IMG/VR virus record: IMGVR_UViG_2648501318_000014
Source of the DNA: a virus
Taxonomy: Duplodnaviria; Heunggongvirae; Uroviricota; Caudoviricetes
Direction: 5' to 3' (one strand)
DNA length: 8,702 bases
Below, in pieces: positions 6,764 through 8,663 of the stretch. Under the pieces are notes generated by a model. The model was not told the origin of the DNA. It saw only the letters and a program-made list of their open reading frames with translations, and ran no database searches. Position numbers and translations under genes: made by a program. Positions within the stretch are counted from its first letter, which is position 1. Each line of letters begins with the position of its first letter.

Positions 6764-6796
6764 GTGAATTTAGCAAAAATGGGGAGAACTCGAAAA

Positions 6797-7015
6797 ATGA
6801 TGATTTGCCCACTGTGTGGAAGTGCCGCCCATACTCGCAGCAGTTTTCAGGTATCTTCATTGACCAAAGAGCGTTACAACCAGTGCCAGAACATTAACTG
6901 CAGCCATACTTTTGTTACCCATGAAACTTTTGTTCGTTCGATTGCAACGCCAAAAGAGTCAAATCCGGTTCAGCCGCATCCTCATAAATTTAAACAGGTG
7001 GGTTTGCCGATTTAA
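6797..7015 (+). CDS. ogr: Ogr/Delta-type C4 zinc-finger late transcription activator, 72 aa
   Basis: MMICPLCGSAAHTRSS...KERYNQCQNINCSHTF matches the CxxC...CxxxxC Ogr zinc finger; SD GGGGAG about 10 nt upstream of the ATG at 6797; 72 aa as in P2 Ogr. The ORF-track start at 6764 adds a non-homologous extension and is less likely. Confidence 0.85.
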   Translation: MMICPLCGSAAHTRSSFQVSSLTKERYNQCQNINCSHTFVTHETFVRSIATPKESNPVQPHPHKFKQVGLPI

Positions 7016-7078
7016 ATGGCGACATAACTACATGATTTAAAACTATACTTTTCTATAAGTTGAGGTTAAATTAACAAT

Positions 7079-7256
7079 GCCTGACGTTAGCGGGGATTTA
7101 TCCCCACTCCGTAGATATGTAGTTTGTCGCTTTGCGACTGCGGACCGATTACCTGATTGCCATGTAATCGGACGCCGACTTGTTAAGCTTTCTGGGCTAA
7201 CTGGTTGTTATTTTTTATTTAGTTAGGGCCATGCGCTTGCGCTAAGAGACGTCAGG
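7079..7256 (+). ncRNA. Candidate structured noncoding RNA upstream of the RT operon (retron msr/msd-like), bounded by an imperfect inverted repeat
   Basis: Left arm gcctgacgttagcg (7079-7092) pairs with right arm cgctaa-gaga-cgtcagg (7240-7256): 13 bp with a 4-nt bulge. TTAGCG followed by a G-run sits just inside the left arm. Internal hairpins at 7092-7105, 7126-7138 and 7145-7171. No ORF. An AT-rich promoter-like stretch lies upstream and an SD follows the right arm. Confidence 0.3.
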
Positions 7257-7276
7257 TATCTATGGAGGAACAAGTT

Positions 7277-7450
7277 ATGGATACAAACGAACTTGGCTTA
7301 GTTAAGGCGCGTGTTGAACTGATCACCGCTATGCTCAAATGCGCAACCGCGTTTGTTGGCTTAGTTGGTGCGGTTTACGCCGTTCTTAACATGGCCTTCA
7401 ACTACAGCAATTTAACTCATGACAATAGAAGTTCAAAGGTGGGAAGATAA
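7277..7450 (+). CDS. Small hypothetical membrane protein (57 aa, one predicted TM helix); candidate effector or partner of the RT
   Basis: SD GGAGG at 7264-7268, 8 nt before the ATG at 7277; product MDTNELGLVKARVELITAMLKCATAFVGLVGAVYAVLNMAFNYSNLTHDNRSSKVGR has a ~25-residue hydrophobic core; its 3' end overlaps the RT start by 32 nt. Confidence 0.4.
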   Translation: MDTNELGLVKARVELITAMLKCATAFVGLVGAVYAVLNMAFNYSNLTHDNRSSKVGR

Positions 7451-8192
7451 ATTTGAGATTAAGCCCGGGGTTTGGGTTTATGTCCCAAGCGTTGAGGCAC
7501 GTAAAGTCGGAGGGAAGATACTTCAGGCTGTCAGAAACAAGTGGATTCCGCCACTCTATTTTTACCATCTAAGAACTGGTGGGCATCTTAAAGCTGCCAG
7601 ATTACACTTAAAAAGTGATTTTTTTGCCGTTGTTGATATTAAACAATTTTTTCAGTCAACGAGCCGTAGTCGTATCACCCGTGATCTAAAGAGCTACTTC
7701 ACCTATTCTCAAGCGCGGGAAATCTCAACATTTTCAACTGTAAGAAACTTGTCCCATAGTCCACATAAGCATGTCCTCCCTTTTGGTTTTGTTCAATCTC
7801 CAATACTTGCAACCCTCTGCTTAGATAAAAGTTATTTTGGTAGCTTACTACGCCGATTGAACAAACATCATGATCTCAAGCTAAGTGTGTTTATGGATGA
7901 TGTGATCATCTCGTCAAACGATTTGGCCCAATTACAAGCGGCTTACGACGAAGCACTAGTGGCAATGCGCAAATCTGGTTATCAAGCCAACATGAGTAAA
8001 ACTCAGGCACCATCGTCAAAGATTAGCGTGTTTAATTTAACTTTGAGTAAGGGAGTTATGAAAGTCACATCTCAGAAAATGAGTGACTTCCTGATTGATT
8101 TCTATTCAAGCAATTATGAGCCGCACAGAATAGGGGTCAAAAACTACGTCGAAGCTGTTAATCCAGGGCAAGCGAAACTCTTTAAGTTGTAA
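7419..8192 (+). CDS. Compact reverse transcriptase (257 aa) with retron-type motifs
   Basis: Motif 1/2-like YVPSVEARKVGGKIL; NAxxH-like AARLH; motif A FAVVDIKQFFQS (Asp codon 7635-7637); motif B LPFGFVQSPILATL; motif C VFMDDVII (Asp-Asp codons 7896-7901); KVTS in the position of the retron VTG motif. Frame is closed by TAA at 7413-7415 just upstream, so no longer N-terminus is possible. Confidence 0.85.
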   Translation: MTIEVQRWEDKFEIKPGVWVYVPSVEARKVGGKILQAVRNKWIPPLYFYHLRTGGHLKAARLHLKSDFFAVVDIKQFFQSTSRSRITRDLKSYFTYSQAREISTFSTVRNLSHSPHKHVLPFGFVQSPILATLCLDKSYFGSLLRRLNKHHDLKLSVFMDDVIISSNDLAQLQAAYDEALVAMRKSGYQANMSKTQAPSSKISVFNLTLSKGVMKVTSQKMSDFLIDFYSSNYEPHRIGVKNYVEAVNPGQAKLFKL

Positions 8193-8261
8193 TTGCGATC
8201 GCATGTAGTAGCAACTGGGCTTGACTGAATGCCTGCCGCCATTTTGCCGCCACTACCAAAG

Positions 8262-8289
8262 AAAAAAGGGCTACGCTTTCACGTAACCC
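8262..8289 (-). terminator. Intrinsic terminator of ssrA (minus strand); may also terminate the convergent RT operon
   Basis: On the minus strand: 8-bp stem GGGUUACG/CGUAGCCC (one G-U pair), 6-nt loop, then U6 (plus-strand aaaaaa 8262-8267), starting 12 nt after the ssrA 3' end. On the plus strand the same hairpin is followed by a T-rich stretch. Confidence 0.45.
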
Positions 8290-8300
8290 ATTGATTTATT

Positions 8301-8663
8301 TGGTGGAGCTGGCGGGAGTTGAACCCGCGTCCGAAATTCCTACATCCTCGGTACTACATGCTTAGTCAGTCTTTACATTCGCTTGCCAGCTGCGGACGGA
8401 CACGCCACTAACAAACTAGCCTGATTAAGTTTTAACGCTTCAACCCCAGGCAGGGCTTCCACGCGATCTCTTTTGGGTTTGACCTCTCTTGATCCCCGTC
8501 CTAAGAGCGGAGGCTAGGGAGAGAGGGCTCTAAGCAGGTTATTAAGCTGCTAAAGCGTAGTTTTCGTCGTTTGCGACTATTTTTTGCGGCTTTTTACGAG
8601 GCCAACCGCCCCTCGGCATGCACCTTGGGTTTCGCAAATCCCGTCGAATCCAGAATCAGCCCC
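8301..8663 (-). ncRNA. ssrA: tmRNA (transfer-messenger RNA, SsrA), complete 363-nt gene
   Basis: Reverse complement begins GGGGCTGATTCTGGATTCGACGGG and ends GGTTCAACTCCCGCCAGCTCCACCA; the tag reading frame GCAAACGACGAAAACTACGCTTTAGCAGCTTAA (ANDENYALAA-stop) is at 8542-8574. Matches enterobacterial ssrA as I recall it. Confidence 0.95.

Follow-up and report, generated by a model that had tools for sequence, protein, structure and literature searches.

A structured leader RNA upstream of a small-protein gene and a retron-like reverse transcriptase in a P2-like prophage

Results

The 8,702-nt window analysed here (the whole stretch of IMG/VR record IMGVR_UViG_2648501318_000014 to which all coordinates refer) carries a structured RNA element on the + strand at positions 7073–7282, the extent matched by a family covariance model (R2), and downstream of it the genes of a 57-aa small protein (SP) and a 257-aa reverse transcriptase (RT). 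We consider it fairly probable that one transcript spans ncRNA, SP and RT, with this leader as its non-coding 5′ portion, and that it is the product of a minimal, retron-like cassette for defence against phages, carried by a P2-like prophage of E. coli. The case is built on the architecture of the RNA, which shows covariation, on its strict linkage to SP and RT, and on the affinity of the RT to retron enzymes. A preliminary description had read the region as a retron ncRNA or, alternatively, as a 5′-UTR regulatory structure. The first reading gains from a retron-type RT downstream, covarying terminal arms (a1/a2), an invariant TAG after a1 and a conserved −10-like box; the second is also borne out, by a covarying helix between positions 7107–7118 and the Shine–Dalgarno (SD) sequence of SP, and the two readings are compatible.

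Locus and encoded proteins

The cassette lies between the ogr gene of the P2-like prophage and ssrA. It is carried by ~0.5% of complete E. coli genomes, and Klebsiella prophage records hold a 99.5% identical copy; in E. coli genomes without it, the shared sequence comprises only the last ~68 bp beside ssrA. Across 23 loci in unrelated genomic contexts, SP and RT are the only conserved neighbours of the RNA. Among these loci, no third conserved gene was found within ~2 kb of SP–RT, no HTH gene was found between SP and RT or nearby, and Ogr is a neighbour in only 5. Literature searches on the RefSeq accession, on a "type XIV" retron and on other hyRNA-type systems returned no description of this family, at a coverage that is incomplete and compatible with an earlier one. 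In our reading, the family, apparently an undescribed small retron-like defence cassette, represents a new and minimal variant among retrons.

The RT gene (7419–8192, +; catalytic FMDD at residues 158–161) begins 160 nt downstream of the leader and inside the SP gene, which it overlaps. No SD sequence of its own was found at the RT start, which suggests that both proteins are made together. The preliminary description had missed this gene, the strongest support for its retron idea. The protein matches Pfam RVT_1 with 77 bits (2e-21). Its best PADLOC model is RT_VI (63 bits, E = 6.6e-18), and the other models are mostly retron RTs; RT_VI heads the list for all 33 family members, with a best E of 1.9e-24, close to RT_I-B and RT_IX. 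The only DRT/UG model among the top ones is RT_UG33 (33 bits), and RT_IV is absent among the matches listed for the window RT. All 13 best PDB profile hits are retron RTs. The alignment with the Ec86 RT extends over most of the latter (residues 59–295, thumb region included), to nearly full length, and begins only at Ec86 residue 59. At E ≤ 1e-30, the RT family comprises 158 clusters (50% identity), all of about 250–260 aa.

Two motifs of this RT are atypical. The sequence VFN (residues 204–206) is aligned to VTG of Ec86, the G of which is the most conserved residue described for retron RTs (Mestre et al. 2020, PMC7736814); the family shows no variation at F205 or N206. Where retrons have NAxxH, the window RT has AARLH (residues 59–63), with H63 invariant and A59 nearly so. 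The curated NCBIfam cut-offs for retron_St85_RT, retron_Ec67_fus and Drt3a were not reached, the best score being 49.5 bits against 235 for retron_St85_RT. That the cassette works like a retron is well supported, with msDNA synthesis as a prediction. Its assignment to one of the named types lacks such support: the RT has no VTG triplet, and the system matches no curated retron type.

The SP gene (7277–7450, +; start as called by RefSeq) has its counterpart in every homologue in the form of a 45–65 aa ORF that overlaps the RT start and encodes a conserved helix with an NY motif. AlphaFold2 predicts one long, mostly hydrophobic helix spanning residues 3–54 (pLDDT 78). Searches of Pfam, PADLOC and NCBIfam with SP gave no match, and by analogy with the SPs of Type VI retrons it is presumed to be a toxic effector.

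Architecture and conservation of the leader RNA

The RNA was compared across 22 distinct loci, with RT homologues that are 35–83% identical. Model R2 matches the window with 118.6 bits (E about 2e-31), a score that is partly high by construction because the window was in the seed alignment. It gives exactly one hit per locus with enough upstream sequence, always 5′ of SP–RT, and no other match in 219 kb on both strands. A model made of distant relatives only (R1) matches the window partially, with 16 bits. All 22 loci share one plan, which runs through a1, TAG, a hairpin, an anti-SD segment, a GTCAC hairpin and a variable region in the first half, and through a GCGC hairpin, TAG, a2, the SD arm and ATG in the second. 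The length of the leader in the family is 145–210 nt.

The folding and covariance comparison across homologues that the preliminary description had proposed yielded both a stable fold and compensatory changes. The + strand leader of the window folds at −67.7 kcal/mol (z = −3.7), and 0 of 200 shuffled sequences were equally stable. In a structure-blind MAFFT alignment, a1/a2 and two hairpins are 85% paired, compared with 28–43% when slid, and their covariation score is 0.32 versus about 0.08, a value reached by none of 500 shuffles. RNAalifold, run de novo, recovered a1/a2 together with hairpins 1, 2 and 5. The minus-strand RNA also has a good fold (z = −4.6), yet the G-U pairs of the covarying helices are compatible with the + strand only, and a minus-strand RNA was rejected. 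A search of Rfam with the leader returned nothing at the gathering threshold or at E ≤ 10, save two chance-level matches on the opposite strand.

Conservation also indicates where transcription may begin. A TAnnnT hexamer, often with a TGn extension, stands 12–13 nt 5′ of the a1 core in 16 of the 22 homologues; in the window it is the predicted −10 box TAAATT (7067–7072, +) of the cassette promoter. One locus (L029) has a perfect TTGACA-17-TATAAT upstream. A consensus sigma-70 scan upstream of the window leader found no strong + strand promoter, and the promoter call is based on conservation only, which would place the transcript start at about 7077–7080, the 5′ end of a1.

Terminal stem and hairpins

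An imperfect inverted repeat of 13 bp had been described at the borders of the region. Its arms, gcctgacgttagcg (7079–7092, +) and cgctaagagacgtcagg (7240–7256, +), are where they had been placed, and the repeat is real; its length is what has to be corrected, the core supported by covariation being only 8 bp (7080–7087/7249–7256). A repeat search delimited an 11-nt core at 7077–7087/7249–7259 with 91% complementarity. As a terminal stem of the RNA, the 5′ arm a1 (7077–7088, +; core CCTGACGT at 7080–7087) pairs with the 3′ arm a2 (7248–7259, +; core ACGTCAGG at 7249–7256). In an alignment whose model left out the a1/a2 helix, the core is 100% paired family-wide, with both-side changes in 4 of 6 core pairs. 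The stem could be prolonged by pairing of TTAGCG (7088–7092) with CGCTA (7240–7244) over a 4-nt bulge, a pairing that competes with the family-conserved hairpin formed by GCGC 7233–7236 and GCGC 7239–7242. The left arm also contains an ATG, which opens a 49-codon ORF (7077–7226, +). The region had been called free of ORFs; strictly it is not. The ATG is absent from homologues, and the ORF was rejected as spurious.

Just inside a1 lies TAG (7088–7090, +), the A and G of which are invariant in the 22-sequence alignment and also in group B. The invariant G, 7090 in the window, is found 3–5 nt past a1 in 22 of 22 sequences. At this conserved-G point, the Ec86 ncRNA also reads ...CCCTTAGCG... Comparison with retrons (Mestre et al. 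2020, PMC7736814) makes G7090 a candidate branching or priming G.

The three hairpins named in the preliminary description were all located. Hairpin 1, GGGGA-TTTA-TCCCC (7092–7105, +), is msr-like and is present with differing sequence in most homologues (88% paired, both-side changes in 3 pairs); the three loci at the greatest distance (L005, L041 and L050) lack it. Hairpin 2, GTCGC-TTT-GCGAC (7126–7138, +), is 92% paired, with both-side changes in 4 of 5 pairs, and keeps the sequence GTCAC N3-4 GTGAC over most of the family; because of this sequence conservation it is likely to be a recognition element for the RT. The third hairpin, CCGATTAC-N11-GTAATCGG (7145–7171, +), is situated within a larger one at 7140–7175, which, like the hairpin at 7176–7207, forms part of a variable, msd-like region (7139–7217, +).

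In this region, both length (about 55–110 nt) and sequence differ among homologues, and hairpins persist. The DNA complementary to it folds at −16.4 kcal/mol (z = −3.1). In many homologues, its stability is little above that of shuffled sequences (z from −0.2 to −2.7), and a long, very stable msd stem is not evident in the cassette family. We regard it as a candidate template for reverse transcription. It is followed by a conserved 3′ block (7218–7246, +), composed of TTTAGTTA, hairpin 5 and TAAG, which holds the most conserved nucleotides of the RNA; in distant relatives, TGTTGGTT takes the place of TTTAGTTA. Hairpin 5, the GCGC/GCGC hairpin mentioned above, is 96–99% paired, and compensatory changes in it are rare. 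A 7-nt direct repeat, TTAGTTA (7219–7225 and 7298–7304), is reminiscent of the repeats of Vpa2; it was set aside, being present only in close relatives of the window.

Pairing of the leader with the Shine–Dalgarno sequence

The right arm had been noted to end 7 nt before an SD sequence, and GGAGG is indeed present at 7264–7268. It belongs to an SD arm (7256–7268, +) whose sequence GTATCTATGGAG (7256–7267) pairs with the anti-SD segment CTCCGTAGATAT (7107–7118, +). An equivalent helix was picked in 21 of the 22 homologues, with at least 8 different sequences, and in these its 3′ arm covers a purine-rich, SD-like run 5–13 nt 5′ of the SP ATG. At the remaining locus (L007), the automatic pick was wrong and the helix is readable by eye (CTCCTCCG/CGGAAGGAG). 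The helix is 85% paired with both-side changes in 4 of 11 pairs in the MAFFT alignment of the window's clade, and has both-side changes in 6 of 6 pairs in the covariance-model alignment. The duplex energies of single sequences compared with shuffles give a weak signal (p from 0.002 to 0.46; combined 4e-7); because the sequences are related, the case for the helix rests on covariation and not on the combined p. As predicted from these pairings, the helix buries the SP SD sequence, and the leader sequesters the SP ribosome-binding site.

The a1/a2 and anti-SD/SD helices cross and therefore imply a pseudoknot or a two-state switch. Nested alternative folds are at most 3.1 kcal/mol apart in 13 of 14 loci. 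One further long-range pairing was considered and rejected, in which the leader would bind the end of SP or the start of RT in the manner of Type VI: the repeat that could form it in the window (7096–7115/7433–7452) is not conserved, and duplex energies were no better than those of shuffles in any homologue.

Discussion

Measured against the general definition of retrons (Mestre et al. 2020, PMC7736814), the cassette has an RT with an adjacent ncRNA on the same strand (leader 7077–7268, RT 7419–8192, both +), and paired terminal repeats (7080–7087/7249–7256) enclosing msr- and msd-like structures. A retron msr has one to three hairpins and the msd a long, stable stem-loop; here two 5′ hairpins are conserved, one of them absent from three loci, and the variable 3′ region forms hairpins that are often no more stable than shuffles. 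VFN stands in place of the VTG triplet.

The closest known systems are the Type VI retrons (Vpa2, Sen3), whose ncRNA hides the SP ribosome-binding site and whose SP depends on msDNA for its translation (bioRxiv 10.1101/2025.10.22.683967; bioRxiv 10.64898/2026.04.27.721009). Type VI retrons are reported to invert the retron logic, msDNA turning the toxin on and not off, and to have no detectable msDNA without a trigger. With Retron-Vpa2, Retron-Eco12 and Retron-Sen3, the cassette shares the gene order ncRNA, SP, RT, a ribosome-binding site of SP hidden by structured ncRNA, a small helical SP with a hydrophobic core, a short RT and, likely, an anti-phage role; RT_VI is also the top PADLOC model here, with only 63 bits for the window. 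About 78% of Type VI entries have a Cro/C1-type HTH gene between SP and RT, whereas in all 23 loci of the present family there is no HTH gene and SP and RT overlap. The SPs of Type VI (clusters cl2075, cl2760, cl3272 and cl3897) have 75–79 aa, against 45–65 aa and no family match here; the ncRNA measures about 280 nt and the hyRNA about 470 nt, against a leader of 145–210 nt. The Type VI leader pairs with the region after SP, in contrast to the present family, in which such pairing is not conserved; and the SD helix, which is the basal stem of a1/a2 in Type VI, crosses a1/a2 here. Since there is no HTH here, while the HTH of Vpa2 represses reverse transcription and that of Sen3 is an antitoxin, the logic of Type VI does not carry over to this family as it stands.

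Other systems share single traits. As in Retron-Eco1 (Ec86), RT and msr/msd-style ncRNA share a transcript, the ncRNA preceding the RT and having terminal inverted repeats and then a conserved G; unlike in Ec86, an ncRNA-controlled effector gene is inserted between ncRNA and RT, and the RT is about 60 residues shorter, with VFN for VTG and AAxxH for NAxxH. Type IV (Retron-Eco6/Ec48), which together with Type VI belongs to retron RT clade 3, also combines an RT with a small membrane-type effector. In Type IV, the gene of this effector, a protein with two TM helices, is found 3′ of the RT gene or overlapping its end, whereas the SP here has one helix and lies upstream; an SD-sequestering leader has not been described for Type IV. 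The mRNAs of type I toxins (hok, tisB class) encode small hydrophobic toxins and hide the SD sequence through long-range pairing with an upstream segment. Burial of the SD by an upstream segment of the same mRNA is what the leader has in common with them; in contrast to type I toxin–antitoxin systems, no antisense RNA is evident here, and the leader is RT-linked and carries retron-type elements.

On this basis, we propose the following model. The transcript would start at a1, and the ends of the leader would pair (a1/a2) beside the invariant TAG, in the layout of a retron. With the 2′-OH of G7090 as primer, the RT would synthesise single-stranded DNA on the 3′ half of the leader, from around 7247 in the direction of 7140. 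The segment 7107–7118, between hairpins 1 and 2, would pair with the SP SD sequence and keep SP off, and the translationally coupled RT would probably be held off as well. Crossing each other and being nearly equal in energy, a1/a2 and anti-SD/SD would act as a pseudoknot or a two-state switch. The model follows Vpa2 (Type VI) in supposing that, upon phage infection, cDNA would be made or stabilised and would disrupt the anti-SD pairing; SP would then be translated and the infected cell arrested or killed. It should be noted that the RT start, located within the SP gene, has no SD; should RT synthesis require translation of SP, a strict order of RT first and SP later is problematic. A more far-reaching version, which we advance only tentatively, is that of a new, two-gene retron type whose leader is a switch operated by reverse transcription: cDNA synthesis, or the build-up of cDNA in phage-infected cells, would reshape the mRNA that encodes the RT and free the SD of the one-helix toxin. 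With the RT start inside the toxin gene, the switch would also raise RT synthesis, and abortive infection would be self-amplifying and free of a protein antitoxin.

The main alternative to this model is the classic toxin–antitoxin logic of retrons. As in Retron-Sen3 and most retrons, msDNA could be made constitutively, with RT–msDNA neutralising SP after translation, and the anti-SD helix would then only set a low SP:RT ratio. Such toxin–antitoxin logic has a precedent within Type VI, where the ssDNA of Sen3 is constitutive and its SP is controlled post-translationally; the position of the RT start within SP and the lack of an SD there suggest that both proteins are made together, and the a1/a2 stem with invariant TAG fits ordinary retron priming. 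We nevertheless regard it as unlikely, since an HTH antitoxin gene occurs at 0 of 23 loci and a conserved, covarying SD helix argues for strong translational control beyond tuning. If, conversely, the helix were all that mattered, the leader would serve only as a cis-acting control of translation and stability of a small toxin, in the way of type I toxin leaders, and not as a template, and the RT would use some other substrate or work template-free. The helix is clear, the msd-like region is not unusually stable, and the RT has no VTG, the triplet said to direct retron RTs to the msr. We think this improbable, because it leaves a1/a2 with TAG, the GTCAC hairpin and the GCGC block unexplained, none of which touches the SD, and because the RNA is strictly linked to an RT family whose nearest relatives all use an adjacent ncRNA.

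The RT could also copy the leader by a non-retron route, protein-primed, 3′-OH-primed or repetitive as in DRT systems, and its product would not be 2′–5′ branched msDNA. The atypical motifs (VFN, AAxxH), the short N-terminus, the Ec86 alignment from residue 59 only and the failure to reach any curated retron family speak for such a route. We nonetheless regard it as highly improbable: the DRT/UG models score far below the retron models, and a conserved G next to a terminal inverted repeat is the hallmark of retrons. A reading of the repeats as phage attachment, IHF or integrase arm sites at the prophage end deserves hardly any credence; the preliminary description had named integrase or IHF arm sites as a refutation of its reading. 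The attP arms of P2-type phages are indeed found where this region lies, from ogr to the ssrA junction; yet the element accompanies SP–RT at loci without Ogr or P2 context (Ogr in 5 of 23), cassette-less E. coli genomes share just the ~68 bp next to ssrA, and compensatory changes with tolerated G-U pairs are the behaviour of an RNA and not of a protein-binding site. We have rejected it on these grounds.

In Type VI retrons, the HTH complicates the question of how DNA synthesis frees the toxin ribosome-binding site, and the present family appears to be a stripped-down relative. Since the anti-SD segment occupies a defined place between conserved hairpins and beside the priming stem, the coupling between reverse transcription and translation is directly testable by a few point mutations. 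The small RT and compact template RNA could be of interest for retron-based genome engineering. The cassette would also extend the defence cargo known from P2-like prophages; its site is the ogr–att end of the prophage and not the described hotspot.

A conserved structured leader upstream of the SP and RT genes

The region at 7079–7256 is a conserved structured leader with a helix that masks the Shine–Dalgarno sequence (SD) of the small protein gene (SP), a retron-like terminal stem and an invariant G, and it is strictly linked to a retron-related reverse transcriptase (RT) and a small helical protein. The repeat arms and three hairpins of the preliminary description lie exactly at the positions it gave, and a repeat search places the core inverted repeat at 7077–7087 and 7249–7259. 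Of the 13 bp assigned to this repeat, the inner five pairs compete with a family-conserved GCGC hairpin (7233–7236 with 7239–7242). The plus strand folds with −67.7 kcal/mol, closed by the stem of arms a1 and a2 (z = −3.7 against dinucleotide shuffles). The region had also been described as lacking an ORF; a 49-codon ORF is in fact present (7077–7226, plus strand), but its ATG, the outer end of a1, is missing in the homologues, and it is probably no gene.

Loci encoding RT relatives were gathered by searching with the window protein and with a degenerate version of the motif LPFGFVQSPILA. The 22 distinct upstream regions obtained belong to RTs that share 35–100% identity with that of the window. 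The loci come from Enterobacterales, Oxalobacteraceae, other Proteobacteria and metagenomes, and in every one an ORF of 45–65 aa overlaps the RT start; no other conserved gene was found near the SP–RT pair. The same ordered RNA plan, 143–211 nt long, is seen in every locus, with exceptions for hairpins 1 and 2 in L005, L041 and L050. It runs from a1 through an invariant TAG, hairpin 1, a pyrimidine-rich segment, hairpin 2 (GTCAC-N3–4-GTGAC), a variable hairpin-forming region of ~55–110 nt, a conserved TGTTGGTT/TTTAGTT block and hairpin 5 (GCGC...GCGC) to TAG or TAA, then 3–5 nt, a2, an SD-containing arm and the SP start codon. The three exceptional loci, which encode the most distant RT relatives, are without hairpin 1 and the GTCAC hairpin and retain a1/a2 and a long anti-SD/SD helix; the RT reading frame of L005 appears to be split into two pieces. 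Scanned with a covariance model of the whole family, the window reaches 118.6 bits over 7073–7282; the model finds one match per locus, always upstream of SP–RT, and nothing else in 219 kb.

Two long-range helices, a1/a2 and anti-SD/SD, are supported by the sequence comparison. In a structure-blind MAFFT alignment of the 22 sequences, a1/a2 together with hairpins 2 and 5 is 85% paired, compared with 28–43% for slid controls, and its covariation score of 0.32 (against ~0.08) is reached by no shuffle; a1/a2 and hairpins 1, 2 and 5 also emerge from an unguided RNAalifold prediction. When the alignment is made with a covariance model from which a1/a2 was left out, the six core pairs of this stem (7080–7087 with 7249–7256) are 100% paired and four of the six are changed on both sides. 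Compensatory C-G/U-A and G-C/A-U changes distinguish, for example, the CCTGACG and CCCGGC forms, with GTCTGACG and GTCCAGC as intermediates.

The second helix pairs 7107–7118 (CTCCGTAGATAT) with 7256–7267 (GTATCTATGGAG) on the plus strand, and its 3' arm takes in most of the SD. Its counterpart was picked in 21 of the 22 loci with many different sequences, always covering an SD-like purine run; the variants include TCCGTAGAA/TTCTACGGA, CCTCCATAG/CTATGGAGG, CCTCATC/GATGAGG, CCTTATCC/GGATAAGG and GGTTCTTCAC/GTGGAGAACC. A MAFFT alignment of the clade to which the window belongs shows this helix 85% paired, four of its pairs being compensatory, and in the model-based alignment all six of its six pairs are changed on both sides. 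The frequent G-U pairs in both helices indicate that the RNA is read from the plus strand.

A −10-like TAnnnT, often TGn-extended, lies 12–13 nt upstream of a1 in 16 of the 22 loci (TAAATT at 7067–7072, plus strand, in the window), which makes a1 the probable transcript start, as it is in retrons. Just upstream of a1 there is also a promoter-like site directed at ogr (TTAACC-16-TATAGT, 7042–7069, minus strand, 9 of 12 matches); the region is not enriched in such sites relative to shuffles.

The small protein and the reverse transcriptase

SP is a 57-aa ORF (7277–7450, plus strand) with GGAGG at 7264–7268, 8 nt ahead of its ATG, and AlphaFold2 predicts a helix over residues 3–54 (pLDDT 78). The 257-aa RT ORF (7419–8192, plus strand; Pfam RVT_1, 77 bits) overlaps it by 32 nt. 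The RT start codon of all homologues is located within the SP gene and lacks an SD, which suggests that the two proteins are made together and that RT is translationally coupled to SP. The RT ATG often overlaps the conserved NY codons of SP in homologues (AAC TAT G), and this overlap may underlie the NY conservation.

In PADLOC the window RT scores best against the Type VI retron RT model (63 bits); most of the models next in rank are likewise for retron RTs, and 33 family members give the same ranking. Searched against all PDB sequences, the family profile has retron RTs as its 13 best matches, Ec86 first (aligned residues 59–295). The RT nevertheless falls below every curated cut-off (NCBIfam retron_St85_RT, 49.5 bits, where 235 are needed). 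The VTG triplet that defines region Y of retron RTs (Mestre 2020, PMC7736814) is VFN in the window RT, its F and N being invariant within the family, and the NAxxH motif is replaced by AAxxH. The family is small and discrete: among 1.84 billion representatives it comprises 158 clusters at 50% identity (E ≤ 1e-30), with members nearly all of 250–260 aa.

Genomic setting and distribution

The window corresponds to the right end of an Escherichia coli P2-like prophage. It contains genes for tail sheath, tube, tape measure, gpU and gpD, an Ogr/Delta zinc-finger late-gene activator (6764–7015, plus strand; Pfam 77.6 bits; RefSeq start 6797) and, after the cassette of leader, SP and RT, a full-length bacterial tmRNA gene, ssrA (8301–8663, minus strand; Rfam 295.8 bits). 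The 3' end of ssrA faces the prophage, which indicates integration of a P2-like prophage at this gene, and the cassette is the final cargo ahead of the junction. At 8289–8268 (minus strand), a hairpin with a T-run after it resembles the ssrA terminator.

Positions 7016–8300 are identical (100%) to E. coli CV839-06, where RefSeq annotates only a 'hypothetical protein', which is SP, and a 'reverse transcriptase domain-containing protein'; the leader falls inside the 260-nt gap between ogr and the former. Among 5,426 complete E. coli genomes, 28 carry the cassette and one more a diverged copy, the common sequence in genomes without it being only the last ~68 bp adjoining ssrA. The whole cassette is also found at 99.5% identity (compared region 7016–8298) at the end of 13 records of Klebsiella P2-like phages (K. 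pneumoniae prophages, including OK490395), and in 12 of them its end is the exact record end. This distribution marks it as mobile prophage cargo, and the near-identity of the sequences implies that phages of E. coli and Klebsiella have exchanged it recently. An Ogr-like gene precedes the cassette in four further loci (L017, L031, L057 and L040), which makes P2-like phages repeated carriers of it.

Relation to retrons and possible mode of action

The preliminary description proposed a retron msr/msd, or alternatively a 5'-UTR regulatory structure, and both proposals gain support: a retron-related RT gene lies downstream of the region, a1/a2 is conserved and covaries, and an invariant G lies near a1, while the covarying anti-SD/SD helix masks the SD of SP. 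The best explanation is a retron-type system, in which the leader would be RT template RNA and translational repressor of an effector at once. Among known systems, Type VI retrons come closest. For one of them, Retron-Vpa2, it is reported that the SP ribosome-binding site is buried within a 'hybrid RNA', that msDNA can be detected only once phage triggers are present, and that SP translation depends on this msDNA (bioRxiv 10.1101/2025.10.22.683967). The cassette shares the masking of this site by leader RNA, but the differences are substantial: the HTH gene of Type VI is in none of the loci examined, SP and the leader are shorter, pairing of the leader with the region after SP is not detectable, the RT is only a distant match to the Type VI model, and the VTG triplet of retron RTs is lost. 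No curated protein or RNA family covers the cassette components, and no description of the family was found in the literature searched. We rate the cassette as working like a retron, most like Type VI, and assign it to no named type.

On the Vpa2 precedent, we propose that cDNA synthesis releases the SD of SP. The cDNA would be primed at G7090, the G of the TAG next to a1, and copied from ~7247 in the direction of hairpin 2 and the anti-SD segment, which would free the SD. Ordinary retron logic as in Sen3, with constitutive msDNA and post-translational control, is a serious rival to this release by cDNA synthesis. Because the order along the RNA is a1, anti-SD, a2, SD arm, the two helices cross, and their 3' strands are only 0–6 nt apart; they may either coexist in a pseudoknot that stacks at the 5' end of the transcript or alternate. 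With each helix enforced in a nested fold, the calculated energy gap for the window is 0.3 kcal/mol, and for 13 of 14 homologues it is at most 3.1 kcal/mol. Such near-equal energies are the pattern expected of a switch but are also compatible with a pseudoknot.

Two further repeats involve the leader. A 20-nt imperfect inverted repeat (7096–7115 with 7433–7452) joins hairpin 1 and the anti-SD segment with the first RT codons; no significant comparable pairing was found in homologues. One copy of the direct repeat TTAGTTA is in the leader's conserved 3' block (7219–7225) and the other in SP codons 8–10 (7298–7304). The repeat is not family-wide, being present only in some closer relatives of the window (loci L057 and L035), and it recalls the 7-nt repeats of Vpa2 that are proposed to mediate pairing between msDNA and the riboregulator.
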